Shown one piece after another: positions 8,358-60,635 of a stretch of DNA of 64,000 bases. The notes under the pieces were generated by a model that saw only the letters and a program-made list of their open reading frames with translations, was not told where the DNA came from and did no database searches. The stretch is from the UHGV virus genome UHGV-0209088; one strand, written 5' to 3'. The position numbers were made by a program, and so were the translations under genes. Source of the DNA: a virus. The first letter of the stretch is position 1. Each line of letters opens with the position of its first letter.

Positions 8358-8611
8358 AGACGCTGACCATTATCCTGCTGGCGGCGATGCTGTCCGGATG
8401 CGGCGCGACCTACAAGTACAGTGTCGACGCAGCGGTGAATAAGATGCCCGAGTCCGTCCGCCAGAAGTGCGACCCGGTTCCGAAGGATCTGAAGCACGGT
8501 GCCACGATGGGCGACCAGACGAAGGCTTACGATAACCTGGTGGGCCTCTACGGCGAATGCGCTGAGCGCGATGCCGCAAAGGCCGACTGGATCGCGTCTC
8601 AGGGTCAGTGA
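8354..8611 (+). CDS. o-spanin lipoprotein (Rz1-like)
   Basis: Signal peptide with lipobox LSGCGA; 85 aa. Confidence 0.5.
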   Translation: MKTLTIILLAAMLSGCGATYKYSVDAAVNKMPESVRQKCDPVPKDLKHGATMGDQTKAYDNLVGLYGECAERDAAKADWIASQGQ

Positions 8612-8832
8612 CGGAAGTTCCGCTGGCGGGCTTCCAGCTTTGATTTGCAGTCCACGCAGATTGTGAAACCGTGTTCGCGTCTTGCCGCTGGCATCTCAGC
8701 GTCACAGTATTCGCAGAACTCCGGGCCATATCCGGCGTCGTCAGGGGTGTAGCGCACAGGGGCCGGGCGGGAAGCATTATTGCGCTCCCACTGCATCAGC
8801 TCCTGTTCTTGTGCCTTGTCTTCTTGTGACAT
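8605..8832 (-). CDS. TraR/DksA-family C4 zinc-finger protein
   Basis: CEYCDAEMPAARRE...CVDCK zinc finger in a 75-aa protein; typical neighbour of int/xis regions in lambdoid phages. Confidence 0.7.
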   Translation of the reverse strand: MSQEDKAQEQELMQWERNNASRPAPVRYTPDDAGYGPEFCEYCDAEMPAARREHGFTICVDCKSKLEARQRNFRH

Positions 8833-8898
8833 AATTACTCTCCAAATGAATACGGCCCCGGAAAACCCGGAGCCGTTTTTATTTTCGCGTCACGCTGT

Positions 8899-10188
8899 TC
8901 AGGCCGCTAACTTTACCGGCTCGCCGCTCCCGTTCAGAACGGCATCCAGCCACGCTGACCACTTATCCATGGCCGCTCGCTTCTCAGGCATATAATCCGC
9001 GCGGTCATAGTGCTTGCTGCCCGTGTCGTTCTGGGCGTGCTGCTGGATCAGGTCGCGGGTGAAGCGGTCGATACCGGCGTCCTTGGCCCGGGACTTCCAC
9101 GTCCGGCGCAGGTCGCGCGGCGTGAACGGTTCCATGCCCTCAATGACCGGATTGTAGCCATCCCCGCCGAAGGCCCGGCGAACGGCGTGGGAGACGCTGA
9201 CAGCCCCGAGGATTTCATCGGCGCTGTCCGAGCGGGCAGGGAAGAGGTATCCTTCGCCGTACTTGTCCTTCAGGCGCTTCAGGTCAGGGATGATGACATC
9301 GGGTAACGGAATATCGTGGGGGTACATCCGCCCTTTGGTCTTCTCTTTCGGCATCATCCAGAGCTTGGCGTCGAGGTCGATCTCGTGGCCTTCGATCCGC
9401 AGCGTCTCCTGCACGCGTTGTCCACAGGCAATCAGCATGCGCAATAGTATTTCAGTTCCTTCGCTGAAACCGAAGTTCCCATCCTGACAGCCGAACCAGA
9501 CCGTCTTGATCTCTTCGGCGCTCAGGTTCCGGTCGCGCAGGGTGCGGGCACCCGAATCCTTCGCCACGGCGGCGGCTGGATTCGTGGTCACGCCCCAGTC
9601 CTTACGCTCCTTGACCGTATAGTCATTGGCGGAGGTGATGGCCCATTCGAAGGTCGCCCGCAGGTAACTGCGCGCCTTGTCGGCTGCGCCGCGATTCCCG
9701 TCCTGGTAGTGCTTCGACACGAACTTGATGATGTCGTCAGGGGTGACCGTGGAGGGTGCCCGGTCGCGGCCAATGACATCGGCGGCGTTGTGTTTTGCCT
9801 TCAGGAGCACCCGCTCGACCTCGCTGGTCATGGCGATGTTCTTCGACTTCATGAAGGCGACCCGGGCCTCAAACATGGCCTCTAACGTAATTTCGTTTTT
9901 AACCTTCTCCTTGACCCGTTCACCCGCTGGATCGCCGCCCGCAGCGACCGCCAGAAAGACATCGCGGGCGAGGGAGCGCGCCTTATCCGGGGTGGTGTCC
10001 GAGACCCGGCAGAGGTTCATCTTCCGCTGCTTGCCGTCAGACTTGCGGCGGTACCGGACAACATATGTTTTCCGACCGCTCGACTGGATACGGACGCCGA
10101 ATCCCTGCAGCTCGCTGTCCCAGAGCCACGCATCGCCGGAGGCAGGTGCAACAAGGTTATCAATCGCAGTTTTTGTGATTTTCGGCAT
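8899..10188 (-). CDS. int: tyrosine integrase, P4-type, with an N-terminal DUF4102-like arm-binding domain
   Basis: N-terminus MPKITKTAIDNLVAPASGDAWLWDSELQGFGVRIQSSGRKTYVVRYR; catalytic-domain length and R...HxxR...Y layout. Start taken at the internal ATG with an AAGAGGG Shine-Dalgarno (+/-1 nt). Confidence 0.85.
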   Translation of the reverse strand: MPKITKTAIDNLVAPASGDAWLWDSELQGFGVRIQSSGRKTYVVRYRRKSDGKQRKMNLCRVSDTTPDKARSLARDVFLAVAAGGDPAGERVKEKVKNEITLEAMFEARVAFMKSKNIAMTSEVERVLLKAKHNAADVIGRDRAPSTVTPDDIIKFVSKHYQDGNRGAADKARSYLRATFEWAITSANDYTVKERKDWGVTTNPAAAVAKDSGARTLRDRNLSAEEIKTVWFGCQDGNFGFSEGTEILLRMLIACGQRVQETLRIEGHEIDLDAKLWMMPKEKTKGRMYPHDIPLPDVIIPDLKRLKDKYGEGYLFPARSDSADEILGAVSVSHAVRRAFGGDGYNPVIEGMEPFTPRDLRRTWKSRAKDAGIDRFTRDLIQQHAQNDTGSKHYDRADYMPEKRAAMDKWSAWLDAVLNGSGEPVKLAA

Positions 10189-10248
10189 AAAACCCTCTTT
10201 ACATTTTCGCTCTTCCGATCCTTCGACCGGGTGGATTTCCCCGCGATT

Positions 10249-10268
10249 TAGGGCGCAGCTAGGGCGCA
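10249..10268 (+). promoter_or_regulatory. TAGGGCGCA-gc-TAGGGCGCA direct repeat (11-bp register)
   Basis: Exact 9-mer repeated twice, 60 nt upstream of int. Confidence 0.5.
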
Positions 10269-10387
10269 AAATCCCGGGGTGTTGAGCGTTTTTAGAGGAA
10301 AGGCCGTGAATGGGTCAGAGTGTTAAACCATTGAAATCACGTCCAAAAAAGATTTCGCGTGACTTCCCGGTAAAGCGTGGTTTAAGA

Positions 10388-10431
10388 CTTCCAAGCTGAA
10401 TACGGGGGTTCGATTCCCCTCACCCGCTCCA
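10388..10431 (+). other. attP-like core: 44-nt 3' half of a tRNA-Gly(UCC) gene (anticodon loop to CCA) with no 5' half
   Basis: CTTCCAAGCTGAATACGGGGGTTCGATTCCCCTCACCCGCTCCA has the T-arm GGGGG/TTCGATT/CCCCT, acceptor 3' strand plus CCA, and the anticodon loop CUUCCAA (UCC). Very close to E. coli glyT. No complementary 5' acceptor strand (GCGGGTG) lies upstream. Confidence 0.6.
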
Positions 10432-10522
10432 CTTTTTCCTTCAAAAAACACCAACAATCACAGGCACTAACCTGGATCGGCCCGCCCGGTCAACCGCTAC
10501 GTTTGCGCCCTGAATTTTGAGT

Positions 10523-10542
10523 TAGGGCGCAGGTAGGGCGCA
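10523..10542 (+). promoter_or_regulatory. TAGGGCGCA-gg-TAGGGCGCA direct repeat
   Basis: Exact 9-mers; a single extra copy at 10568-10576 and an inverted partial copy at 10504-10512. Confidence 0.5.
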
Positions 10543-10645
10543 AGAAACGACGGGAAGTCCCGTGATTTAGGGCGCAGGCCCGAGAAGAGCCGCGCTTCCG
10601 GGTTCTTCGCGTTCCAGATAGCCTGTAAGGGGAAGTGTAACTCTG

Positions 10646-10663
10646 TTACTCAAATTTGAGCAA
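10646..10663 (-). promoter_or_regulatory. palindrome TTACTCA-AATT-TGAGCAA (family TTRCTCA-N4-TGAGYAA)
   Basis: 18-bp inverted repeat; the minus strand reads TTGCTC-N17-TTACAC, promoter-like, pointing toward att/int. Confidence 0.45.
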
Positions 10664-10711
10664 GTGCTTTTTAAGGGGGCGCGGATCCCTGCGCCCTGCG
10701 GGTTCGATATG

Positions 10712-10743
10712 TGCGCCCTAAAGTGCGCCCTAACTGCGCCCTA
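10712..10743 (-). promoter_or_regulatory. three tandem TGCGCCCTA copies (minus-orientation TAGGGCGCA) at 11-bp spacing
   Basis: 10712-20, 10724-32, 10735-43; the last copy overlaps the TAG stop of the minus-strand gene ending at 10741. Confidence 0.5.
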
Positions 10744-11499
10744 AATCAGTTTGTCGGACTCGGGCGGTGGGTTGGTGCGGGTGAACTCGCGTACCTTGGA
10801 GGCGAACCGCTCAGCTTCGGAGGCCATACCCTCCAGCCCTCGCCAGGTGCCAAGCGCGCCGGTGTGTTGGATGAAGCGAACGGCATCGGCAATCTCTTTG
10901 ATCGCGCCGTAGCCATTCAGGGACAGTCCTGTCTCGCGCTCAAACTCCGCCAGCTTTTCGAGGGCTTCGCTGGACTTGCGGGTGCGCATTTCCACCTCCC
11001 GCTCGACGCGTGCGCTGTACTGCTCATCCAGCTTCTGCCGCTCCCGCTCGACCGCCGCTCGCACCTCATCCTCATCCACGCCGCCAGCGCGGCGCATCAT
11101 CGCGGCCATAAACGCTCTGGTTGTAGGGATGGCATCGAGTTTCGGAGCCGCAACGATCTGGCGGATGCCTCCCGGCGTCACGTCATAATGGCCCCATGTC
11201 GGCGGCAGTTCGCCCGGCTTGATGATGTCCTTCGGTGCCACAATCCACCAACGGTCGCAGTATTGTTGCACCGGTGAGGACTTCGCCGGGTCTTTGAGTT
11301 CGCGCAGCCAGTCCGACCGGCTGACCTTGATTTCGAAACCATGTATCTCCAGCCCGCGCGACGGGTACATGTTCATGGCCACCGCGTCAGCCCAGCGGCG
11401 TTGGGCGGATCCGGTACCGTCGCCAACCTCGAAAAAGATGGCCCATTCAGGGGAGCAGAAGCACGCCCGGAGCAGCGATTTGACCTCGGGCGTTCTCAT
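10741..11499 (-). CDS. MmcB-like PD-(D/E)XK DNA-repair nuclease family protein
   Basis: N-terminus FFEVGDGTG...RRWADAVAMNMYPSRGLEIHGFEIKVSRSDW matches the D...E.K nuclease-core pattern of MmcB-like proteins; coiled-coil C-terminus. Confidence 0.45.
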   Translation of the reverse strand: MRTPEVKSLLRACFCSPEWAIFFEVGDGTGSAQRRWADAVAMNMYPSRGLEIHGFEIKVSRSDWLRELKDPAKSSPVQQYCDRWWIVAPKDIIKPGELPPTWGHYDVTPGGIRQIVAAPKLDAIPTTRAFMAAMMRRAGGVDEDEVRAAVERERQKLDEQYSARVEREVEMRTRKSSEALEKLAEFERETGLSLNGYGAIKEIADAVRFIQHTGALGTWRGLEGMASEAERFASKVREFTRTNPPPESDKLI

Positions 11500-11690
11500 G
11501 ATGATGCCCTCGGCAGCTTCTGCTCAATGAACGCCATCCCGGGAGCCGGGATAACCCGAAGCCGTCCGTCGCCGCTCAGACCCTCAGCCATCTTAATCAG
11601 GATCTGCATGTGCTCCGGGGGGAGCACCACCTGCTTAACCTCGCCGTCGATCTCTGCGTAGATGACGACGCGGCCAATCTCTCCGCTCAT
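11496..11690 (-). CDS. hypothetical protein (64 aa)
   Basis: ORF with start/stop overlap to its neighbours in the leftward operon. Confidence 0.25.
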   Translation of the reverse strand: MSGEIGRVVIYAEIDGEVKQVVLPPEHMQILIKMAEGLSGDGRLRVIPAPGMAFIEQKLPRASS

Positions 11691-13115: not shown

Positions 13116-13394
13116 TTAGGCCACTGCGTCTTTCAGAGCCTTCGCCGCCTTGAACTTCACGGCGCGCTTCGCTTCGATCTGCACTTCTTCACCAGTCTTC
13201 GGGTTGCGACCGGTGCGGGCGGCGCGGAATGTCAGTTCCAGCTTGCCGACTCCGGGGATCAGCGCTTCGCCGTTTTCCAGAATGGATTCCGAGGTGATGT
13301 CCGCCAGGCGAGCGAGGACGTTTTCAGTCTGGGCGACACCCATGCCGGTTTTGGTAGAGAGGGTTTTGATCAGTTCTGCTTTAGTCATTTTCAA
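13116..13394 (-). CDS. HU/IHF-family DNA-binding protein
   Basis: 92 aa; MTKAELIKTLSTKTGMGVAQ...RAARTGRNPKTGEEVQIEAKRAVKFKAAKALKDAV is the HU signature. Confidence 0.8.
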   Translation of the reverse strand: MKMTKAELIKTLSTKTGMGVAQTENVLARLADITSESILENGEALIPGVGKLELTFRAARTGRNPKTGEEVQIEAKRAVKFKAAKALKDAVA

Positions 13395-24179: not shown

Positions 24180-24566
24180 TTATTCATGATTACCTCTGAT
24201 TGACGTATAGCCCTTCCCCATGTACCGCGGCGTCATCACGGTAGTGACAACGTGACTGCCGGTCTTCGGGTCAGGAACGACCACAAAATAGCAGGTCTCG
24301 TAGAACAGCACGTACCCGCCGCGCTCCTGAGCGACGCGGATGACCCGCTTTATGCCGGCGCGCTTCGCACGCTCCAGGCAGGCCAGAACGGCATTATGCA
24401 GCATCGGCAGGATGTCCGCTGCCGGGCGATCGCAGCGCTCAACGAAGCGGTCAATCGCGTGCAGCGATATGGTGTAGTGCCTGAAAAGGATTGACCCGCC
24501 CTGCATCATGACCGCCTCCGGCGCGCCATCAACGGGAATTCGTTTAAGCCGTCCCTGAGTCTCCAT
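24180..24566 (-). CDS. hypothetical protein
   Basis: Track ORF 24180..24641; start trimmed to the internal ATG to reduce overlap with the upstream gene. Confidence 0.3.
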   Translation of the reverse strand: METQGRLKRIPVDGAPEAVMMQGGSILFRHYTISLHAIDRFVERCDRPAADILPMLHNAVLACLERAKRAGIKRVIRVAQERGGYVLFYETCYFVVVPDPKTGSHVVTTVMTPRYMGKGYTSIRGNHE

Positions 24567-24783
24567 CCTCACCCCCTTTGAGTATGTCCAGGACCTCCAG
24601 AATGCTGCGGCTATTGCCCAGAACGTAAGAAGAGAAGCCACCAGATGACTTGATGGTCTGCTGCGCCTTCATGGCGTCTGCCGGAGAGCAAACGTTCGGC
24701 ACGCTGGCGTTGATGAGCGTCCTGTTAAACGAGAGCTGCTGCTCGAGCAGTTCGGTCAGCTTCGCTATGGTCGGGTCTTTCAC
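24544..24783 (-). CDS. hypothetical protein (79 aa)
   Basis: ORF in the leftward operon. Confidence 0.3.
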   Translation of the reverse strand: MKDPTIAKLTELLEQQLSFNRTLINASVPNVCSPADAMKAQQTIKSSGGFSSYVLGNSRSILEVLDILKGGEDGDSGTA

Positions 24784-25088
24784 ATAGTGTCCTTAGCCGC
24801 GGCGCGGCGGTTCGGTGCAATGCTGGTGGCTTTGGCGACAGAGAGGATCCTCCGCCAGTCTTTCTGACGCAGCTCTTCGATGATCTCTCGGGCAGTTCCG
24901 ATCCTGGTCAGGTGAATGCTGCCGGTAGTGCCGTTGATGCTGGCGCGGTAATGGCATCCCCCGCTTTTATAGCGTTGGTTGTACTCCATGAACACGGAGC
25001 CAGCCTCGCCGCTATCGACATTGTGCTTCACGTTCAGATTGCGGATGAAACGCAGGAGATCATTGCCGGTGACGCGTTTTGTTTTCAT
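24780..25088 (-). CDS. hypothetical protein (102 aa)
   Basis: ORF in the leftward operon; ATGA overlap with the downstream gene. Confidence 0.3.
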   Translation of the reverse strand: MKTKRVTGNDLLRFIRNLNVKHNVDSGEAGSVFMEYNQRYKSGGCHYRASINGTTGSIHLTRIGTAREIIEELRQKDWRRILSVAKATSIAPNRRAAAKDTM

Positions 25089-25460: not shown

Positions 25461-25581
25461 CCTTAATCAGTGAGAACAGATGCTTTTCTGCTGCTTTGAC
25501 ATCGGTATGATTATGAACAATTGGGAGTGTCATAGTTTTAGTCCGGTAGTTGCTTGACCTGGTTATTTAAATATAACATCG

Positions 25582-25599
25582 TTACTCAAATATGAGCAA
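25582..25599 (-). promoter_or_regulatory. palindrome TTACTCA-AATA-TGAGCAA
   Basis: On the minus strand this reads TTGCTC-N17-TTATAT, a sigma70-like promoter, immediately after the terminator. Confidence 0.45.
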
Positions 25600-25628
25600 G
25601 AAATAAATAACCCCGCATTAGCGGGGTT
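25598..25628 (-). terminator. rho-independent terminator (minus strand)
   Basis: CCCCGC-TAAT-GCGGGG hairpin followed by TTATTTATTT on the minus strand, just past the stop at 25633. Confidence 0.6.
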
Positions 25629-30013: not shown

Positions 30014-30375
30014 ATTAAGTTCCTGTGTTGTTGGTGAATTTGCAACCGGCCCGCACGCGAACCGGTGGTAAAGTCACCAGAGTTTCCAGATGGCAAAAGC
30101 CATCGACCAGCATGCAGCAGGAAAGTAGACAAGCGTCACGCGGCGAGCTGCAGCCGGGTGGAGCGTCATAAGCCAGTCTATGATCATCGAACACCTCACT
30201 TGAAAAAGTTGAAGAAGATTGCCAGCGGTACCGCGATAGCCAGCGTCAAAATAATCGTCAGCAAGCAGCTGCGGCGCTCTTCTTTGTTACGGAACCGGGA
30301 CGCCTCAGTCATCAGGTCTTTCACGGAAATTACCTCTTTGTAATTGCTTTGTGTCGTTAGAGAAATACTATTGCA

Positions 30376-30393
30376 TTACTCAAAAATGAGCAA
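30376..30393 (-). promoter_or_regulatory. palindrome TTACTCA-AAAA-TGAGCAA
   Basis: The minus strand reads TTGCTC-N17-TAGTAT, a sigma70-like promoter upstream of two small membrane ORFs. Confidence 0.45.
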
Positions 30394-30399
30394 GCGTTT

Positions 30400-34276: not shown

Positions 34277-34484
34277 GGGCCTTGCCTCTTCTATGATTAT
34301 TGGCTGAGCGGCGGTTCGTTCGTCTTGCGCCTCGGTTCAAGAGCCAGTCTCGCGTTCTCCCTTTCGGGTAGTGGGACTGGGTTTGGCCTCACGGTTGGGA
34401 ATCCTGACACTACGATCAAGCCCCTGCGTTGCGCATCTCCCCTGGCATCCTTGCCCGCCGCTCCTTGAAAGTAACTATATTGCA

Positions 34485-34502
34485 TTACTCAAATATGAGC
34501 AA
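34485..34502 (-). promoter_or_regulatory. palindrome TTACTCA-AATA-TGAGCAA
   Basis: The minus strand reads TTGCTC-N17-TATAGT, promoter-like, after the terminator. Confidence 0.45.
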
Positions 34503-34526
34503 GTAGTTTTTACGATTTCCGTTGCA

Positions 34527-37483: not shown

Positions 37484-37503
37484 TAGGGCGCACATAGGGC
37501 GCA
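37484..37503 (+). promoter_or_regulatory. TAGGGCGCA-ca-TAGGGCGCA direct repeat
   Basis: Exact 9-mers. Confidence 0.5.
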
Positions 37504-37537
37504 GATTATTCAAAAAAGATAAGTTGACAGGTGGTAT

Positions 37538-37555
37538 TTACTCAAAAATGAGTGA
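37538..37555 (+). promoter_or_regulatory. palindrome TTACTCA-AAAA-TGAGTGA
   Basis: Preceded by TTGACA at 37523; upstream of the gene at 37568. Confidence 0.4.
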
Positions 37556-37567
37556 TAAGATTACTGC

Positions 37568-38992: not shown

Positions 38993-39248
38993 ATTCGAAC
39001 CGGTGAGAACCGTCGCGGACATGAAAACCCTCGACCTTGAGCAGGTGTCCGATGGATACCTCGCAGCCATTGACGGCTATGTCCTGAAAGGCACTGAGAG
39101 CCGCAGTTTCGTGCATGGCTGGCGCAACGGCATGGTCGACGCTGGTCAGGTATGCCCAGATGAGCACCAGCAGGCCCTGGCGCGCGACATCATCGCCACC
39201 AAGTACGATCTCTTTGACCGCGGGGGCCAGGATGGCAATTCTGATTGA
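38985..39248 (+). CDS. hypothetical protein (87 aa, GTG start)
   Basis: GTGGATAA start/stop overlap with a GGAGG Shine-Dalgarno 4 nt upstream. Confidence 0.3.
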   Translation: MDKFEPVRTVADMKTLDLEQVSDGYLAAIDGYVLKGTESRSFVHGWRNGMVDAGQVCPDEHQQALARDIIATKYDLFDRGGQDGNSD

Positions 39249-39825
39249 TAGCGGCACGCCGGAGGCGGATAAGAACTTCTGGGCCACTACGCCGGAGTGC
39301 TTTCAGGATGGGCAGGCGCTCTACGGTCGCCCGTTCGCGGTCGATGTGTGCGCCGAGCCGCTGACTGCGAAATGCCAGCGCTACTACGGCAACCCGGCAC
39401 TGTACGACGCGGTGCTGGACTACCGCACCGGCGCTGATGTCCGCGCCATGATGCGTGAATCCGGCAACATCTGCGTCGCCCTCGACTCTCTGGCGGTCGA
39501 TTGGCCCGAGCACTGGTGGTGCAATCCACCGTTCGATCACAAGCTGGCATTCATCGGGCAGGCCCGCCGTCAGCAGGCCGCAGGCCGTCCCGGCATGATG
39601 CTGCTGCCGTATGAGCCGCTGGCTGGCTGGTGGCGCAAGCGCCTTGCGTTCGGCGTCATCGTCTACGAGCCTGATGGCCGCTACCAGTTCTGCGAGCGTG
39701 ACGGCGTGACCCGCAAGCAGGGTGCAAACTTTGGTTCCGCGCTGGTGGTATTCCCGACCCATCACATAGGCGAGTCTCCGCGCATAAGATTTGAACGCGG
39801 TATTGGACAGCTTGCTCAAAAATGA
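39229..39825 (+). CDS. phage-type DNA N6-adenine methyltransferase (Dam family)
   Basis: WWCNPPFDHK catalytic motif IV (NPPF); start placed at the internal MAILIDSG. Confidence 0.6.
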   Translation, partial: RMAILIDSGTPEADKNFWATTPECFQDGQALYGRPFAVDVCAEPLTAKCQRYYGNPALYDAVLDYRTGADVRAMMRESGNICVALDSLAVDWPEHWWCNPPFDHKLAFIGQARRQQAAGRPGMMLLPYEPLAGWWRKRLAFGVIVYEPDGRYQFCERDGVTRKQGANFGSALVVFPTHHIGESPRIRFERGIGQLAQK

Positions 39826-40976: not shown

Positions 40977-41263
40977 GCCAGCGAATGGTAAGGCCGTTGC
41001 CGGTGTGGACCGAGAAGGCCACCGGTAAGCAGGTATGGGCGCTGCAGGTAGGGCGCATCATCCCGTGCCCGCGTGGAGTGTCCATCTACCCGAAGGACGA
41101 GCGCTACGCCGCGTTTGAGATGCCGCTGTGGTGGTCTGCGACCACACGGGTGGCCGAGGGCGATTTCGTCGTGTGGGAAACAGGTGAGCCGGTGTTCAGC
41201 TGGAAGCCTGCCGAGTTCGAAGCGCGGTTCCGGCCTGCTGCCGACAGCAAAACAGACCCGTAG
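40973..41263 (+). CDS. hypothetical protein (96 aa)
   Basis: ATGA overlap. Confidence 0.3.
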   Translation: MSQRMVRPLPVWTEKATGKQVWALQVGRIIPCPRGVSIYPKDERYAAFEMPLWWSATTRVAEGDFVVWETGEPVFSWKPAEFEARFRPAADSKTDP

Positions 41264-41264
41264 G

Positions 41265-41277
41265 CTGATGCTCTAAC
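41265..41277 (+). repeat. GCTGATGCTCTAA post-stop motif
   Basis: 2 nt after the stop at 41263. Confidence 0.4.
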
Positions 41278-41324
41278 ACGGCAAAGCCAGAGGATACGCG
41301 GCCTCGCGGGGCCGCAAATCAATT

Positions 41325-41344
41325 TAGGGCGCACATAGGGCGCT
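41325..41344 (+). promoter_or_regulatory. TAGGGCGCA-ca-TAGGGCGCt direct repeat
   Basis: Ends about 20 nt before the start codon at 41364, so it lies in the 5' UTR or overlaps the promoter. Confidence 0.5.
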
Positions 41345-42228: not shown

Positions 42229-42849
42229 ATGACCGAACCGAAGAAACCAACCAGGGCGAGGAAAGCGCCCGCGAAACCCGGCGCCACAAAGGCGAGCGGG
42301 GTATCCGCTATTGGGCAGAAGGTCACCGACGCCGCCAAGACTGGCCGCCGTGGCTTTTCCGATGAGCTGAAAGCTGCCGCCCGCGCGCTGTGGGAGGGCG
42401 ACCCGAATATCAGCATGGCTGATGTCGCCGCAGAGGTGGGCGTCACCGTGCGCGCCATGCGGCGCTGGAGCCAGGATGAGAACTGGTCGAAGCGTCAGGC
42501 CGATATGTCCGAGCGCGCTCATGCGGCTGCCGACCAGTACAAGAACAAGCTCTCTGAGCTGGGGCCGGAGATCACCACCGAGCAGCAGAAGCAGGCCGAG
42601 TCCGACGCAGCGGAGGAGACCGCCGTGCAGCTGCGCGCCCAGGTGCTCGACCGCCACCGGAAGGAATGGAACGCGCCGCGCAAGCTCTCCTACGACGCGG
42701 TGAAGGCCAAGAACTTCGACCAGATGAAGATGGCCAAAATCACGGCTGAGGCGCTGACCCTGATCCAGAACGGCGAGCGCAAGGCGTGGGGCATCGATTC
42801 CGGGGGCGATGGGCAAACCAACGTGAAAGTCATTATTGAGCGTGAGTGA
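42229..42849 (+). CDS. HTH DNA-binding protein (terminase-small-subunit-like HTH)
   Basis: ISMADVAAEVGVTVRAMRRWSQDENW winged-HTH segment; basic N-terminus; coiled-coil C-terminus. Confidence 0.35.
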   Translation: MTEPKKPTRARKAPAKPGATKASGVSAIGQKVTDAAKTGRRGFSDELKAAARALWEGDPNISMADVAAEVGVTVRAMRRWSQDENWSKRQADMSERAHAAADQYKNKLSELGPEITTEQQKQAESDAAEETAVQLRAQVLDRHRKEWNAPRKLSYDAVKAKNFDQMKMAKITAEALTLIQNGERKAWGIDSGGDGQTNVKVIIERE

Positions 42850-44366
42850 TGGATAAAAACCTCGAAAAGATGCTGGGCTTCCGGCCTGATGCCATCCCGC
42901 AAATGCGGCTCAAGCCGGTTGAATCTCTGGTGGCCTACGCCCGCAACACCCGCACCCATTCAAAGGTGCAGGTCGAGCAGATCAAGCGCTCTATGCTGGA
43001 GTTCGGATGGACGAACCCCATTCTGGCGGATGATATGGGCATCGTGGCCGGGCATGGTCGCGTTATGGCTGCCGAAGAGCTGTACAAGGCCGGTGAGCAG
43101 ATCCTCTTCCCGAACGGCACGCCGATCCCCATCGGCCAGGTGCCGGTCATCGATTGCACCGGCTGGTCAGACGCGCAGCGCCGGGCGTACATCATCGCGG
43201 ATAACAAGCTGGCCCTGAACGCCGGCTGGGACGATGACATGCTGAGCCTCGAGCTGAAGGAGCTGGACGCGGCGGGCTATGACCTGGATGTCATCGGGTT
43301 CGATGAGAACGAGCTCGCGGAGCTGCTGGCCGATCCCGAGCTGGATCTTGATAGCGACAAAGACCCGGATGAGACACCGGACCTGCCTGATGCGCCGGCG
43401 AGCCGCGAGGGCGACACCTGGATCCTCGGCGCGCACCGGGTTCACTGCGGCAGCGCGACCAGTATGGATGCATGGGACCACCTGATGCAGGGCGAACTGG
43501 CCAACGCGGTATGGACCGACCCGCCATACAACGTCGATCTGGGCCTGAAGAACAAGCGGATGGATAAAGCCATTGGCGGCGAGCGGTTCGCCACTGGTGC
43601 GATCGCCAACGACAAGATGAGCCTGGAAGAGTTTGAGGCGCTGCTCTACGACGCGTTCAGCTGCCTGTTCTCGGTCATGCAGGCAGGGGCGGCCATCTAC
43701 GTGGCCCATTCCGACAAGGCCGGGCGCGAGTTCCGCGAGCAGTTCGAAAGGGCTGGCCTGCACTTTAGCCAGATGCTCATCTGGAAGAAGAACGTCCACG
43801 TTCTGGGGATGGCCGATTTCCAGCCCATTCACGAGCCGATCATGTACGGCTGGAAGAAGGGGAGCCGTCACAAGTGGCACGGCGGCCGCAAGCAGACCAC
43901 CGTCATGGAGATAGGCGAGGGCGGTCCGATCTCCCGGGATGAAGCCGGGCGCTGGCTCATCAAGGTGGGTGACAGCGTGCTGGTCGTGGACGGCCAGGCG
44001 GAACTGGCGGAGATCCCCTCGACCGTGTTCAATGTGCCGAAGCCGGAGAAGTCCGGCCTGCACCCGACGCAGAAGCCGGTGGAGCTCATCGAGCGCATGC
44101 TGCGCAACTCTGCCCGCGGCGGCGATATCGTGGTGGATGCGTTCGGCGGTTCGGGCTCAACGCTGATTGCCGCTGACCGTCTGGGCATGTGCGCCAGGCT
44201 GATGGAGCTGGAGCCGCGCTTTGTCGATGTCATCGTTCGCCGCTGGCAGGACTACACCGGGCGCCGGGCGGTTCACGCGCTCACCGGCGAGGAATTCCCC
44301 GAAGAGGGGCAGGAGCGGAAGACCGGCCCAATCCTCACCGACAACAGCGATACGGATGTGTTTTAG
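42846..44366 (+). CDS. ParB-like nuclease domain fused to an N4-C/N6-A DNA methyltransferase
   Basis: ParB N-domain (AYARNTRTHS...GHGRVMAA); MTase motif IV DPPYN; C-terminal SAM-binding region FGGSGST. Confidence 0.75.
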   Translation: MMDKNLEKMLGFRPDAIPQMRLKPVESLVAYARNTRTHSKVQVEQIKRSMLEFGWTNPILADDMGIVAGHGRVMAAEELYKAGEQILFPNGTPIPIGQVPVIDCTGWSDAQRRAYIIADNKLALNAGWDDDMLSLELKELDAAGYDLDVIGFDENELAELLADPELDLDSDKDPDETPDLPDAPASREGDTWILGAHRVHCGSATSMDAWDHLMQGELANAVWTDPPYNVDLGLKNKRMDKAIGGERFATGAIANDKMSLEEFEALLYDAFSCLFSVMQAGAAIYVAHSDKAGREFREQFERAGLHFSQMLIWKKNVHVLGMADFQPIHEPIMYGWKKGSRHKWHGGRKQTTVMEIGEGGPISRDEAGRWLIKVGDSVLVVDGQAELAEIPSTVFNVPKPEKSGLHPTQKPVELIERMLRNSARGGDIVVDAFGGSGSTLIAADRLGMCARLMELEPRFVDVIVRRWQDYTGRRAVHALTGEEFPEEGQERKTGPILTDNSDTDVF

Positions 44367-44384
44367 CTGTAAACAGAGTTCTAA

Positions 44385-44397
44385 GCTGACGCTCTAA
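44385..44397 (+). repeat. GCTGACGCTCTAA post-stop motif
   Basis: 19 nt after the stop at 44366. Confidence 0.4.
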
Positions 44398-44401
44398 GTA
44401 G

Positions 44402-44444: not shown

Positions 44445-44464
44445 TAGGGCGCATATAGGGCGCA
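44445..44464 (+). promoter_or_regulatory. TAGGGCGCA-ta-TAGGGCGCA direct repeat
   Basis: Exact 9-mers. Confidence 0.5.
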
Positions 44465-44478
44465 CCGCAAAGTATTTC

Positions 44479-44496
44479 TTGCTCATATTTGAGTAA
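44479..44496 (+). promoter_or_regulatory. palindrome TTGCTCA-TATT-TGAGTAA
   Basis: TTGCTC-N17-TTACAC promoter-like; heads a ~105-nt leader shared with the 48105 locus. Confidence 0.45.
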
Positions 44497-44601
44497 CTGC
44501 GTTACACTTCACTTGAGGTAACGGCTATTCCCGCGTTACCGGACCCAGTTCTACTGGCGTGACAAAAACAATCAACCGCGAACCAACGCGGTAGGGATTT
44601 T

Positions 44602-46383
44602 ATGAATATTACATATGGCTCTGTGTGCAGCGGCATCGAAGCTGCATCCATTGCATGGGAGCCGCTGGGGCTGAAGCCAGCGTGGTTTTCCGAGATTGAG
44701 GCTTTTCCGTCTGCTGTTCTGAAGCACCACTGGCCGCACGTCAGCAACCTCGGAGATATGACCAAAATCGCCGCCGCTGTGCGTGCTGGCACCGTTCCTG
44801 CTCCAGACATAGGCGTGGGTGGCACACCTTGTCAGGCATTTTCAGTCGCTGGCGCTCGCGCTGGCCTTTCAGACCCTCGCGGTCAACTCACCATTTCATA
44901 CGTGGAATTAGCCGATGCAATTGACGACACCCGAACCGCAGCCGGAAAACAGCCAGCCATCTTCGTCTGGGAGAACGTGCCCGGAGTCCTCAGCTCCAAA
45001 GACAACGCTTTCGGAGCCTTCCTTGGACTGCTTGCCGGGGAAGACTGTGAGCTACAACCGCCAGGGGGAAAATGGAAGAACGCTGGTTGTGTGCTTGGAC
45101 CCAAAAGAACAATCGCGTGGCGGGTCGTTGATGCCCAATATTTCGGAGTGGCCCAACGACGCCGCCGTGTGTTTGTTGTCGCAAGTGCTCGAACCGATTT
45201 CGATCCCCGAAAAGTATTTTTTGAGTCCGAAGGCGTGCGCCGGGATACTGCGCCGAGCCGAAGCGCGGGGTCGGCAGTTGCCGCCCTTACTGCGAATGGC
45301 GTTGGAACATGTGGTGCGGACGACAACCAAGGACAAGCAGGACACCTGATCGCTGCGTTCGGCGGTGGGAACTGCTCAGGCGCGCTGGATGTAGCGGCCT
45401 GCCTGACAGCGCGCGGCCAGCGCATTGACTTCGAAGTCGAGACCTTTCTCGCCCAGTACAGCAGCACCGGGCAGGGCGCATGGGCTGAGGGCTTTGGCAC
45501 GCTGCGCGCCAGAGAGCAGGAGAGCCACGAGCATCTGGCGGTGATGGCCGTTCACGGCACGCAGGATCCTGACACGCTCAACGAGCTGGCGCACACGCTG
45601 GGGCGCAATCAGGGGCAGGAGAACGCCGTCATCGCGTTCAACAGCAAAGACCACGGGCAGGATGCCGCGGAGGAAATATCCCCGACGCTGCGCTCCGCTG
45701 GTCACGGTACCAGCCACGCGAACGCTGGCGCGCCGCCTGCTGTGGCCTATGGCTTCCAGCCGCGTATTGCCCGCAACGGTCGCGGCGATATGGGCGATGT
45801 TTGCCACGCTCTTACTGCGGAGGCCGGGGAGACCGGGAAGGGGGATTCTGCGCCGCATGTGGCCGTTGCCTTCGCTGAGAACAGCCGCGGCGAAATCCGC
45901 CTTCAGGATGGCGACGGCGGCATCACCGGCCCGCTGTCTACCGGGGGCGGAAAGCCAGGGCAGGGTTATCCGGCAGTGGTCGCCTTTCAGGAACGCGGTC
46001 GCGCTGATGGTCGCACGCTGGAGATTAACGGCGATCTGGCCTACGCGCTGACAGCGCCAAACGGCGGTGGCCGGGCGCAGGAGCGGAACATTGTCGATTT
46101 CCGCACAATGGCCGTGCGTCGCCTGACGCCGCGCGAGTGCGAGCGCCTGCAGGGCTTCCCCGATGACCACACGCTCATCCCATACGGGAAGGCTATCAGG
46201 CCGGAGAAGCTGGAAGCGGACTACGCAAAATATCTGATGCGCGGCGGTCGCATGACCTTTGACGAGTGCTGCCGCGCTGCCGCTGATGGCCCGCGTTACA
46301 AGGCAATCGGCAATTCAATGGCGGTGCCGTGCATGGCTTGGATCGGTCGCCGCATCCTGCAACAGCTCGAGGGGGCTATGTGA
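44602..46383 (+). CDS. DNA cytosine-C5 methyltransferase (Dcm-like) with a long C-terminal extension
   Basis: Motif I region [13 protein letters not shown] motif [15 protein letters not shown] motif FVWENVPG. Confidence 0.8.
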
Positions 46384-47670: not shown

Positions 47671-48030
47671 ATGAGCCGCGCACTTACCCCTGAAGAACTA
47701 CGCAATAACGTCCTGAACCACGTCCGCCTGATGGTCGAATACTGGGCCACCCTGCCGGGCCTTGATGAGCACGCGCGCTGCGATGGCGTGGCGTTCTCGA
47801 TCCTCACCATGATTGACGGCAGCGCAGACCAGCCGCCGATGGCGCTGGTGGCGCTCTCCAGCGATGAGGACAAGCAGTATTACGTCGAGAAGGGCGAGAA
47901 CTGGGTCGAGCACGGCACCGTCATCAACGATGATGTGATGCTGCACGAGGAATATAACGCGCCTGAGCGCGCCGAATATGCCAAGTCCGTCATGAAATCA
48001 GCTGTGAAAGCTGACGACCAGAAGAACTAA
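47671..48030 (+). CDS. hypothetical protein (119 aa)
   Basis: Start set at the Met with an AGGAGGG Shine-Dalgarno. Confidence 0.35.
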   Translation: MSRALTPEELRNNVLNHVRLMVEYWATLPGLDEHARCDGVAFSILTMIDGSADQPPMALVALSSDEDKQYYVEKGENWVEHGTVINDDVMLHEEYNAPERAEYAKSVMKSAVKADDQKN

Positions 48031-48070: not shown

Positions 48071-48090
48071 TAGGGCGCAGGTAGGGCGCA
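48071..48090 (+). promoter_or_regulatory. TAGGGCGCA-gg-TAGGGCGCA direct repeat
   Basis: Exact 9-mers. Confidence 0.5.
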
Positions 48091-48104
48091 ATGTTCAATA
48101 TTAC

Positions 48105-48122
48105 TTGCTCAAATATGAGTAA
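48105..48122 (+). promoter_or_regulatory. palindrome TTGCTCA-AATA-TGAGTAA
   Basis: TTGCTC-N17-TTACAT promoter-like; heads a leader homologous to 44479-44601. Confidence 0.45.
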
Positions 48123-48225
48123 TTGAGTTACATTATCGGCTATCCCGTTTATTCACGGGAAACATGGCCCAGCGCTGCTGGCGTGACGACAATCAATAAG
48201 CCGCGAAAAACGCGGCGAGGAATTT

Positions 48226-49476
48226 ATGAATCGATATGAACTACACCTCGGCAACTGCCTTGAGGTGTTGAAGGACTTACCAGACAACTCCGTAGACAGT
48301 ATCGTCACCGACCCGCCATACGGCCTTAGCTTCATGAACAAGAAGTGGGATTATGATGTGCCGAGCGTCGAGGTATGGTCCGAATGCCTGCGAGTTCTGA
48401 AACCTGGCGGTCATTTGCTGTCGTTCGCTGGTACCAGAACTCAGCACAGAATGGCCTGCAACATAGAGGACGCTGGCTTCGAGATCCGCGACATGGTGTC
48501 ATTCCTCTACGACACTAATGAAACCGCTCAGGCACTGATTGAAAGCCTGACACCGGAACAGTTGAAAATGCTGGACGCCACCTTCGGTCGAGACTCTATG
48601 CTTGCATGGGTGTACGGCAGCGGTTTCCCTAAATCTCACAACCTCAAAGATGACTGGACAGGCTGGGGCACCGCCCTGAAACCAGCGCTGGAGCCAATCA
48701 CCGTAGCCCGTAAGCCGTTCAGAGGAACCGTTGCGGCAAACGTGCTGAAGCATGGCACCGGTGCTCTGAATATTGATGTGTGCCGTATCTCAACGGCAGA
48801 TAAGCTCGGTGGTGGCGCGGAAAAGGCGAAGAATGCTGGTCTAATCCATGAAGGGTGGCAGCGTCCGTGGATGAGCGACCCGCAAGCCGCTGAAGCGTAT
48901 GCGAAACGGATAAGAGAAAATGTCGAGAAGAGCGAAGCGCTAGGCCGCTGGCCTGCCAACTTGATTCACGACGGCAGCGATGAGGTTCTTGACCTTTTCC
49001 CTGAGACCAAATCAGGGGTCATGAAAGCAGGAACCCGGCGCGCTGCTCAGGATGAGCCTGGGAGCGTTTGTTACGGTACATACGGCGGCAATGCCGCGAG
49101 CACCGATACCTATGGGGATTCCGGTAGTGCTGCCCGTTTCTTCTACTGCGCGAAAGCTACTCGCAAAGACCGTAACGAGGGAATGCAGGATCCAGGCCCG
49201 CAGTTCGAACACGGCGCGACGCTGCGCAAGGTGGAGAATACCGAAACCAAAGGCAACAACCATCCGACAGTGAAGCCGACAGACCTGATGGCCTATCTAT
49301 GCAGGCTGGTCACGCCTCCTGGCGGAGTGGTGCTCGACCCTTTCATGGGAAGCGGAAGCACTGGAAAGGCGGCAATGCGAGAAGGGTTCCGATTTATCGG
49401 CATTGAGATGGACGCGGACTACCTTGCGATCGCTGAGGCGCGCATTGCGCATGAGGCCGGGAAGGGGGCAGCATGA
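48226..49476 (+). CDS. beta-class amino (N6-A or N4-C) DNA methyltransferase
   Basis: N-terminal motif IV DPPYGL; C-terminal motif I FMGSGSTGKAA. Confidence 0.75.
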   Translation: MNRYELHLGNCLEVLKDLPDNSVDSIVTDPPYGLSFMNKKWDYDVPSVEVWSECLRVLKPGGHLLSFAGTRTQHRMACNIEDAGFEIRDMVSFLYDTNETAQALIESLTPEQLKMLDATFGRDSMLAWVYGSGFPKSHNLKDDWTGWGTALKPALEPITVARKPFRGTVAANVLKHGTGALNIDVCRISTADKLGGGAEKAKNAGLIHEGWQRPWMSDPQAAEAYAKRIRENVEKSEALGRWPANLIHDGSDEVLDLFPETKSGVMKAGTRRAAQDEPGSVCYGTYGGNAASTDTYGDSGSAARFFYCAKATRKDRNEGMQDPGPQFEHGATLRKVENTETKGNNHPTVKPTDLMAYLCRLVTPPGGVVLDPFMGSGSTGKAAMREGFRFIGIEMDADYLAIAEARIAHEAGKGAA

Positions 49477-51060: not shown

Positions 51061-51909
51061 ATGGAAGTAATTACTCGCATCCGCAGTGAGTCCGCGGAGT
51101 TGCGTCGCGTATCCGATCTAAAGGTCTATGAGTTCAAGGGGCATCAGGGAACGGACAATCTTAAATCCAATGATCATTTCGCCGTACTTATGAACAGCGG
51201 CGGTAGACTGAGCGTACAGTGGGAAGGCAATAAAACCTTGTGCAATGAAGTTGACGCAGGGGATGTGATATTCAGCCCGTCAGGCTCGACAATCTCATGC
51301 AATCATCGAGAGGCCGTAAGCAGCTCTTTCATAGCACTGAAACAGTCAGTGTTCGTGAACGCTTCGAAAGATCATGTTGATTACGGTAGTATTGATTTTA
51401 CCGGGCGACACATCAGGCGGCCAGTGACCACGACCATGGCCATGACCCTTCGCAACCTGAGTTCAGTTGAATCCTATCAGGAATGGCCGATGCTGATCGA
51501 GTCTGCCACTCTCGCGTTTGTGATAGCGCTGATTTCTGCGCTGTCTCCTGCTGCTACAAAGGCGTTCCGTGAAAAGCCATACGGGATAGGTGATGTGCGC
51601 AAGAAGCGGGTGGTTGAGTACATCGACGCGCACCTCACCAGAACGATATCCCTGGCTGAACTGGCGTATGAGGTTGGACTGAGCCAGTACCACTTCTCGC
51701 GGCTTTTCAAGAAGCGCTTCGGCATGAGTATCATGGAATACATCAGCATGCGTCGGGTTGAGGTGGCGAAGGAAAAGCTGCAACTGACCGGCGATACGCT
51801 GGCGAGTATCGCCCACGACTGCGGGTTTTGCAGTCAAAGCCACTTCACTGGGGTTTTCGTGAGGATCACCGGCGTTACGCCAGCAGCGTACCGTAATGGC
51901 GCAAAGTAG
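51061..51909 (+). CDS. AraC/XylS-family transcriptional regulator (AT-rich moron)
   Basis: C-terminal dual HTH (LSQYHFSRLFKKRFGMS...IAHDCGFCSQSHFTGVF); gene GC content visibly lower than flanking DNA. Confidence 0.8.
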   Translation: MEVITRIRSESAELRRVSDLKVYEFKGHQGTDNLKSNDHFAVLMNSGGRLSVQWEGNKTLCNEVDAGDVIFSPSGSTISCNHREAVSSSFIALKQSVFVNASKDHVDYGSIDFTGRHIRRPVTTTMAMTLRNLSSVESYQEWPMLIESATLAFVIALISALSPAATKAFREKPYGIGDVRKKRVVEYIDAHLTRTISLAELAYEVGLSQYHFSRLFKKRFGMSIMEYISMRRVEVAKEKLQLTGDTLASIAHDCGFCSQSHFTGVFVRITGVTPAAYRNGAK

Positions 51910-51927
51910 GAGGATCAGCTACTCAGG

Positions 51928-51940
51928 CTGACGCTCTAAA
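51928..51940 (+). repeat. GCTGACGCTCTAA post-stop motif
   Basis: 19 nt after the stop at 51909. Confidence 0.4.
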
Positions 51941-51987
51941 TGTGATCGCTGGTTAAAATCAAGGAATTGCCGTGAGCGCTCTGAAAT

Positions 51988-52007
51988 CAGGGCGCAGATA
52001 GGGCGCA
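51988..52007 (+). promoter_or_regulatory. cAGGGCGCA-ga-TAGGGCGCA direct repeat
   Basis: One mismatch in the first copy. Confidence 0.45.
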
Positions 52008-57485: not shown

Positions 57486-57884
57486 ATGTGGATCATGCTG
57501 AACAATGCTTTCATTTCTGTAGTCGATAAAGCGCCGAACCCTGAACAGCTCGTGGTTCGTGCTCGTGTGGAAGGCCACATCGAGGCGGTATTCCCGCAGG
57601 CTGAGGTCATCCGTGATGCGTCCGGCGACTACCTGTTCCGGGCCTTCATTGACCGCCGTGTTGTGGCGGCTGCGATGCAGCGCGCGGTAATGGACATCGA
57701 CTACCCGAACTTCAAAAACAGCATCAAAGACGACCGCTACCACGATGCCTGTTCCAGCGTCTGGGGTGTGATGTCACGGTTGCAGCCGGTTCGCCCGTAC
57801 TCCGGTCGTCCATCCCGCAACTATGACCTGTTTGGCGCTGGCGGCGCTGGCAAAACTTCAACCCGCGCGAAAAAGGCTCGCTAA
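57486..57884 (+). CDS. hypothetical protein (132 aa)
   Basis: ORF starts right at the terminator's T-tract with no Shine-Dalgarno; start uncertain. Confidence 0.3.
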   Translation: MWIMLNNAFISVVDKAPNPEQLVVRARVEGHIEAVFPQAEVIRDASGDYLFRAFIDRRVVAAAMQRAVMDIDYPNFKNSIKDDRYHDACSSVWGVMSRLQPVRPYSGRPSRNYDLFGAGGAGKTSTRAKKAR

Positions 57885-60615: not shown

Positions 60616-60635
60616 TAGGGCGCTCATAGGGCGCA
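60616..60635 (+). promoter_or_regulatory. TAGGGCGCt-ca-TAGGGCGCA direct repeat
   Basis: Abuts the Shine-Dalgarno of the gene at 60646. Confidence 0.5.

Follow-up and report, generated by a model that had tools for sequence, protein, structure and literature searches.

A tRNA-Gly(UCC) fragment next to the integrase gene of virus genome UHGV-0209088: a probable attP whose arm repeats recur at promoter-like sites

In the virus genome UHGV-0209088, a tyrosine integrase gene (int) is followed by a short piece of a tRNA-Gly gene. The locus (positions 10189-10745) belongs to a stretch of 64,000 nucleotides that was analysed as a whole and is named here the window. Which state of a phage attachment site does this locus represent: the unrecombined site of the phage (attP), one of the two junctions between a prophage and its host (attL or attR), or no attachment site at all? 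We consider, with a probability of about 0.9, that 10189-10745 is the unrecombined attP of a temperate myovirus of ~93 kb, which belongs to the group of the phages PHB04, Dolphis and Touem01 and targets the tRNA-Gly(UCC) gene of its host. The phage group is already known from isolates and this attP is of the standard tRNA-targeting kind; its sole unusual feature is that the att repeats recur at promoter-like sites across the phage. The isolated relatives are the Bordetella phage vB_BbrM_PHB04 (94.0 kb, genus Phabquatrovirus), the Pseudomonas phages Dolphis, Jeremy and Touem01, and the Aeromonas phage ST4. No account of the att sites or of the lysogeny of the PHB04/Dolphis/Touem01 group was found in the searchable literature.

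The tRNA-Gly(UCC) fragment and its junctions

The segment 10388-10431 reads CTTCCAAGCTGAATACGGGGGTTCGATTCCCCTCACCCGCTCCA and displays 44/44 identity with the tRNA-Gly(UCC) genes of Microvirga sp. 2YAF29, M. arsenatis and M. roseola, with sharp boundaries on both sides. The identity begins at base 1 of the anticodon loop and stops at the CCA end, M. arsenatis sharing one extra base. No similarity to the 5' half of the tRNA was found in the window upstream of 10388. Since the 64-kb window yielded no complete tRNA with ARAGORN and the T-arm alone with Rfam (the other Rfam matches being chance matches), this segment is a fragment and not a gene. These results bear out the original prediction, made from the letters of the window without database searches, that 10388-10431 corresponds to the part of a glyT-type tRNA running from the anticodon loop to CCA and that the 5' half is absent. 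The full 44-mer, which includes the UCC anticodon loop CTTCCAA, is exact in 12 of the retrieved tRNA-Gly(UCC) genes, of which three are from Microvirga species. For a 34-nt part of it, exact matches exist in no fewer than 120 bacterial tRNA-Gly genes, mostly CCC isoacceptors. The phage MT838028, matched by megablast, is unrelated and of low GC; its complete tRNA-Gly(CCC) confirms only that the fragment is tRNA-Gly-like. Exact searches of viral contigs for the 44-mer and for the junction between the P arm (the int side of the site) and the core gave no match.

The strongest evidence for an attP is the three-way comparison of attP, attL and attB. In Microvirga sp. 2YAF29, a tRNA-Tyr gene and a complete tRNA-Gly(UCC) gene are followed by a near-identical copy of 10432-~10545, which includes copies of the 9-bp repeat TAGGGCGCA (attL-type junction). 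About 115 bp past the core are nearly identical in this attL, and the motifs are kept where the spacers diverge. In M. arsenatis and M. roseola, the tRNA-Tyr and tRNA-Gly genes are arranged as in 2YAF29 and are followed by unrelated host DNA, which represents an empty attB. In the window, phage DNA stands in place of the 5' half of the tRNA before the shared 44 nt. The comparison of the 44-mer with genomes, proposed together with the original prediction, has recovered a cognate tRNA-Gly in Microvirga at both occupied (2YAF29) and empty (M. arsenatis, M. roseola) sites. The opposite junction is represented by a Tardiphaga lysogen with an integrase 61% identical to that of the window: host genes are followed by a tRNA-Gly(UCC) 3' fragment, ~210 bp, the int gene and tail genes (attR-type), and no complete tRNA is present at this junction.

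The same layout as in the window is found in independent sequences. The att region is 100% identical over 650 bp in two independently assembled copies of the phage, a metagenome contig of 93,680 bp (85-86% identical) keeps the same order through att and has the attP layout, and the virion-sequenced relatives PHB04, Dolphis and Touem01 have the int gene, ~200 bp and then a tRNA 3' fragment. The unrecombined layout is therefore not an assembly accident. The tRNA fragment always begins at the anticodon loop in the compared relatives and derives from Gly-UCC in the window and the Tardiphaga prophage, from Gly-CCC in the related locus L128, from Arg-ACG in Dolphis, Touem01 and the locus L001, and from a His-GUG-like tRNA in PHB04.

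Phage genes lie on both sides of the site. On the left of int are found genes for tail, tail-fibre and endolysin, and on the right of att genes for a Dda-like helicase, an SbcC-like ATPase, an exonuclease, a helicase and a primase. Over its 64 kb the window showed no host gene and has an even GC content (52-63%). The tail and endolysin genes on one flank and the replication genes on the other agree with the phage genes and private motifs that the original prediction had placed on both flanks, and the identity of the site as an attL or attR was rejected on account of the phage DNA and shared motifs on these two flanks. Its proposal of an unrecombined attP instead is supported by the three-way comparison, the Tardiphaga attR and the virion-sequenced relatives.

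The integrase belongs to PHROG 1 'integrase' (E=2e-47). It contains the Pfam domain Arm-DNA-bind_3 (PF13356) at residues 4-93 (E=1.7e-15), a domain also present in every relative checked, and the domain Phage_integrase (PF00589; E=4e-7), with a weak but significant score (30.4 bits for a cut-off of 27.1). The candidate catalytic residues, identified by inspection, are R258, R358-D-L-R361, H384 and Y394, with an arginine at R358 where a histidine is usual. The enzyme is predicted to be active. No match was found among PDB sequences. There are 893 homologues at E<=1e-30, many of them on contigs of 91-95 kb; the integrase search of genome contigs gave no confirmed relative. The distance from the start codon to the core is 199 bp, and this value, together with the two Pfam domains, confirms the earlier identification of an integrase ~200 bp from the core.

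In the proposed scheme, the integrase would recombine the 44-bp core with its exact counterpart in the 3' portion of the host tRNA-Gly(UCC) gene. We infer that strand exchange would occur in or near the anticodon loop, because the identity sets in at the first base of this loop. The phage copy would take over the 3' part of the tRNA, so that the tRNA gene would stay intact. After insertion, the complete tRNA would abut the P' arm on the side of the replication genes (attL), and the opposite end of the prophage (attR) would carry int next to the 44-nt fragment that had been displaced. Both the Microvirga and the Tardiphaga junction fit a prophage oriented in this way. Fragments of tRNA-Gly(CCC) 3' ends without the tRNA 5' half upstream were also observed at six other loci (L013, L015, L084, L085, L100 and L102); these are probably displaced far-end pieces of other integrated elements (Novosphingobium, Acidimicrobiia and other genomes).

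Several points weigh against the interpretation as an attP of this phage and of this host. The attL and attR of one and the same lysogen were never seen together, and the Microvirga contig stops 3.8 kb beyond the tRNA. The prophage in Microvirga is related to the phage of the window but not identical with it, its arm diverging after ~10545. The window spans 64 kb of an element of ~93 kb, so the topology is not directly observed. The 44-mer is present in the tRNA-Gly(UCC) of many Alphaproteobacteria and therefore does not pin down the host, and a copy 95-97% identical is found in GCA_964207745.1, labelled Klebsiella pneumoniae (L129 and L130). Microvirga, or a relative within the Hyphomicrobiales, is the most likely host. 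As for the Klebsiella-labelled copy, it is located on a 29-kb contig in the attP form, with a Gly-UCC core like that of the window. This label is at odds with the alphaproteobacterial type of the tRNA-Gly core, and a contamination or a mixed sample is a possible origin.

Could an attP-type junction be observed inside a chromosome? Tandem lysogens recreate an attP-like junction in lambda-type integration, and a window of 64 kb cannot show the ends of an element of ~93 kb. We nevertheless regard it as very improbable that the site lies between tandem prophage copies of a polylysogen and not in a free or encapsidated genome: close relatives are repeatedly found as separate contigs of genome length (91-95 kb), virion-derived genomes carry the same junction, and no host DNA is seen anywhere in the window. 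Phages often carry tRNA genes and ST4 has a complete tRNA-Lys beside int, but a decayed phage-encoded tRNA gene unrelated to integration can hardly be sustained and this pseudo-tRNA identity was rejected, since the perfect identity to the host tRNA covers exactly the anticodon loop to CCA and stops abruptly, this boundary recurs with four different tRNAs among the relatives, and the integrated relatives use the block as their junction.

The relatives' contigs of 91-95 kb and the gene order of Dolphis, which is that of the window, indicate that the window can be estimated as about two thirds of a myovirus of ~93 kb. The original prediction had left a choice between an extrachromosomal or circularly permuted genome and a phage-plasmid copy. 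A circularly permuted genome fits, because the relatives have ~91-95 kb and one related phage packages its DNA by a headful mechanism (PMC9503643). The phage-plasmid part is unsupported in the window and was set aside: ParB-like domains occur there only as methyltransferase fusions, the phage has both int and attP, and some of its relatives are integrated. This gene check covers the window alone, and ~30 kb of the genome lies outside.

If the attP reading is right, the little-studied group of ~93 kb myoviruses to which PHB04, Dolphis, Touem01 and many metagenome contigs belong is temperate and integrates into tRNA genes. The targets would switch between Gly, Arg, His and Lys, which matters for host prediction and for the therapeutic use of such phages. 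The exact att match would also tie an uncultured phage to its probable host, Microvirga or related Hyphomicrobiales.

Repeats of the att arms and their candidate binding protein

The repeat TAGGGCGCA is represented by 19 copies in the window, for 0.49 expected, a count not attained in any of 100 shuffles. Eight exact copies are located in the att interval (starting at 10249, 10260, 10523, 10534, 10568, 10712, 10724 and 10735), to which two copies with one mismatch are added (10504 and 10690). They flank the core on both sides and in both orientations, and these 8 exact and 2 one-mismatch copies in 10249-10743 agree with the density of direct repeats that had been noticed in the ~550-bp int-att interval. 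The start-to-start spacing is 11 bp in nine adjacent pairs and 12 bp in one. The last copy of the P' arm provides the TAG stop of the neighbouring gene. In the P arm, the family alignment also reveals two conserved blocks, GTTAAnCCnTTGA and AAATGA..GTGACTT (~10322-10370). The coordinates of all these elements are given in Table 1.

The repeats are not restricted to att. Six intergenic tandem pairs are found elsewhere in the window, all with the 11-bp start-to-start spacing and all upstream of genes of the + strand. A hairpin-like element, AAATCAGCT-N5-AGCTGACGCTCTAA, is present ~75 bp upstream of five of these six pairs (the exception being the 60.6 kb pair) and could represent a terminator or another site of protein binding. 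Several of the outside pairs are followed by the near-palindrome CTTGCTCAAATATGAGTAAC, the orientation of which corresponds to the direction of the downstream gene in 7/7 cases. This element, also present in L128 and next to int in ST4, looks like an operator overlapping a promoter. On the minus strand, the right end of att can be aligned with the modules that precede the operons at 44.4 kb and 48.0 kb. From its position and from the orientation of the palindrome in 7/7 cases, we infer that the module 10630-10745 would be a promoter directed towards int. A consensus scan of 8500-11600, which detected no sigma-70-type promoter, weighs against this role.

The relatives display the same arrangement with other motifs. 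In the P arm the position of the tandem pair is constant and its sequence varies: TAGGGCGCA in the window, L128 and L129, TCGGGCGCA in Dolphis, TAGGTAGCR in the Tardiphaga prophage and CGGGCCCCA in Touem01 and L001. In Touem01, tandem pairs of its motif CGGGCCCCA are present at three further sites, all intergenic and belonging to accessory operons, and the motif of Dolphis forms a tandem pair at one promoter-like site (79591/79602). As the relatives carry their own motif both at att and at promoter-like sites, one protein probably reads the two kinds of sites, and its specificity would have shifted together with both.

Which protein might this be? The candidate binders were ranked with an excision factor first, the integrase on its arm sites second and another regulator third. 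A candidate for the first is an 80-aa winged-helix protein, a putative recombination directionality factor (excisionase), that has a match to Pfam HTH_17 just below the cut-off (E=1.4e-5; 25.7 bits for a cut-off of 27). With the profile of its family, the best PDB match is the excisionase RdfS (8dgl, E=3.8e-4). Its AlphaFold model has a pLDDT of 75.7, and Foldseek retrieved RdfS as the best structure (prob 1.00, TM 0.60-0.69), then BldC and the GIsul2 excisionase. Its gene adjoins that of an HU/IHF-like protein, and these two genes are adjacent also in Dolphis, ST4 and Touem01. Tentatively, we favour the view that TAGGGCGCA is bound by this RdfS/Xis-like protein, which would be both an excision factor and a regulator of transcription by analogy with Apl, Cox and RdfS. 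The repeats lie at distant promoter-like sites and co-vary in the relatives, and a dual-purpose directionality factor therefore fits better than a pure arm role. A comparison of the motif classes with the N-terminal domain of the integrase, the HTH_17 protein, HU, AraC and TraR across eight phages singled out no binder by co-variation; Touem01 and L001 were the most divergent lineage for most proteins.

The repeats may instead be, as the original prediction had suggested for those of the int-att interval, arm-type sites of the N-terminal domain of the integrase, the promoter copies being secondary integrase-binding sites. This is possible, and the Arm-DNA-bind_3 domain speaks for it, as do the two copies of the P arm and the several tandem copies of the P' arm, which resemble a lambda-type attP. 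In ST4 (L136, 7140-8709), the N-terminal domain of the integrase is 57-71% identical to those of the family and the rest 21-24%, identities by which this enzyme is a chimera; its catalytic part has been replaced, yet the N-terminal domain and the GGGCGCA pairs are both retained. However, the other proteins of ST4 are all conserved too, the identities of the N-terminal domain within a motif class (59-80%) overlap those between classes (58-68%), and the P-arm blocks conserved in the whole family are equally good candidates for binding by a conserved domain. We know of no other system with arm sites at six distant promoters. The region of ST4 also contains a complete tRNA-Lys(UUU) ~325 bp from int, with the anticodon-loop-like fragment GACTTTTAATC between them.

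It is unlikely that TAGGGCGCA is bound by a further regulator such as the AraC-type protein encoded at 51061-51909, and we would give as little weight to the repeats being pure transcriptional operators of int and neighbouring promoters, with no recombination role. The six tandem pairs lie just upstream of the promoter-like elements of + strand operons, and an AraC-family gene is conserved in Dolphis and Touem01. But 10 of the 36 copies with at most one mismatch are packed in 500 bp around the core in both orientations, the tandem pair of the P arm has a fixed position in every relative, 7 of the 16 copies of the Dolphis motif are in att, and the AraC homologues (25-36% identical) show no pattern matching the motif class.

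The RdfS/Xis-like protein is thus far our leading candidate for the binder of the repeats. The complete proposal is more doubtful: this protein would occupy the TAGGGCGCA arrays at att and at no fewer than six operon promoters, and a promoter controlled by the repeats would fire across the core into int. If it is true, the directionality of excision and integration is wired to the genome-wide transcription programme, and insertion into the host tRNA physically separates int from the promoter of the P' arm (~10745 to 10630), which excision or circularisation rejoins. The repeats shared by att and promoter-like sites would then be well suited to study the double role of an excision factor that is also a global regulator.

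Other features of the window

Table 1. Positions of the att elements, of their repeats and of the neighbouring genes in the window
Feature	Position	Strand	Description
Zinc-ribbon protein, 75 aa	8605-8832	-	after int
Strong terminator-like hairpin	8852-8876		between int and the zinc-ribbon gene
Tyrosine integrase, 429 aa	8899..10188	-	P4-type N-terminal arm-binding domain and catalytic domain
Putative P arm of attP (int side)	10189..10387		tandem TAGGGCGCA pair 10249-10268 (+), 11-bp phase
Putative attP core	10388..10431	+	3' 44 nt of tRNA-Gly(UCC), first base of the anticodon loop to CCA
Putative P' arm of attP	10432..10745		repeats and palindrome of the following rows
P' arm, inverted degenerate TAGGGCGCA copy	10504-10512
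P' arm, tandem TAGGGCGCA pair	10523-10542	+
P' arm, single TAGGGCGCA copy	10568-10576	+
P' arm, palindrome/promoter-like element	10645-10664
P' arm, degenerate inverted TAGGGCGCA copy	10690-10698
P' arm, triple inverted TAGGGCGCA array	10712-10743
Promoter-like module	10630..10745	-	TAGGGCGCA x3, CTTGCTCAAATTTGAGTAAC, AGAG, TTACAC; pointing leftwards through the core towards int
Gene adjoining attP, 252 aa	10741-11499
HU/IHF-like DNA-bending protein	13116..13394	-	Pfam Bac_DNA_binding, E=8.6e-27; adjoins the candidate excisionase
Candidate recombination directionality factor (excisionase), 80 aa	13396..13638	-	winged-helix protein; candidate repeat binder
Near-palindrome CTTGCTCAAATATGAGTAAC, intergenic	10645-10664, 25581-25600, 30375-30394, 34484-34503, 37537-37556, 44478-44497, 48104-48123
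Intergenic tandem TAGGGCGCA pairs outside att (six)	37484-37503 (+), 41325-41344, 44445-44464, 48071-48090, 51988-52007, 60616-60635
Hairpin-like element AAATCAGCT-N5-AGCTGACGCTCTAA	37408-37438, 41249-41279, 44370-44400, 47995-48025, 51912-51942
DNA methyltransferases (five)	39115-39825, 42846-44366, 44602-46383, 48226-49476, 57884-59632
AraC-type regulator	51061-51909
Open reading frame, 1355 aa	52054-56121		no PHROG match

Beyond the replication genes, the window contains a minus-strand block of genes of unknown function and then plus-strand operons rich in DNA methyltransferases. Five methyltransferase genes are present in ~20 kb; one of them is fused to a ParB-like domain and several are preceded by the repeat module. 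This number suggests a large anti-restriction load. Genes as large as the open reading frame of 1355 aa are found in the matching plus-strand accessory block of Dolphis (gp117, annotated as ADP-ribosyltransferase) and of Touem01, the likeness being one of size and position. Touem01 (L137) also has, at 24228-24917, a gene annotated as a ParA-like partition protein. The zinc-ribbon protein encoded after int is annotated as TraR in Dolphis and Touem01.

Relatives of the 252-aa gene adjoining attP are named MmcB family DNA repair protein by some sources. Homologues 76-80% identical are found in Klebsiella (L140) and Pantoea (L142), within unrelated lambdoid prophages that have a different integrase, and this gene is a mosaic. 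These two prophages, being lambdoid, unrelated and equipped with a different integrase, were not retained as informants on att.

Comparison with known systems

In the preprint bioRxiv 10.1101/2020.11.02.365908, which cites sublocation work, a class of tRNA-targeting integrases is described for the segment from the anticodon loop to CCA, and for families of this class the change of target tRNA at a constant position within the tRNA is known. The site described here resembles this anticodon-loop-to-3'-end class, which comprises P4-like and genomic-island integrases, by its block running from the loop to CCA, the adjacent int, the regenerated tRNA and the varied tRNAs in one family. It differs by the position of int on the 5' side of the core in the orientation of the tRNA, and the element is a myovirus of ~93 kb and not a satellite or an island. 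With int on the 5' side, the integrase gene of a lysogen would be at the far end beside the displaced fragment, away from the intact tRNA.

With PHB04, Dolphis, Jeremy, Touem01 and ST4, the window shares the order tail, lysis, TraR-like, int, att and replication, and the integrases are 50-60% identical. The tRNA 3' fragment at ~200 bp from int and the tandem motif pair in the P arm are likewise shared with these phages. The tRNA targets (Arg-ACG, His-GUG-like and Lys in these isolates) and the motif variants are different, and the DNA identity is low.

Concerning the repeats, two phage proteins provide a comparison. Apl of coliphage 186 recognises direct repeats spaced by one helical turn, which lie at att and between the early promoters (PMC7498355), and Cox of P2 is a similar dual-purpose factor (PMC3936717). 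The repeats of the window are, as in these systems, direct repeats one helical turn apart located at att and at promoter-like sites. Unlike the single switch region of Apl and Cox, they cover at least six promoter-like regions across ~25 kb, and the 80-aa candidate is RdfS/Xis-like, with no homology to Cox or Apl by any test run.

The best match of the 80-aa protein, in sequence and in fold, is RdfS of the Mesorhizobium element ICEMlSymR7A, with an identity of 29-36% over ~55 residues. Mesorhizobium and Microvirga are members of one bacterial order. Both attP and promoters are bound by RdfS, at sites that have no consensus motif (PMC11963761), whereas the window has a sharp 9-bp motif.

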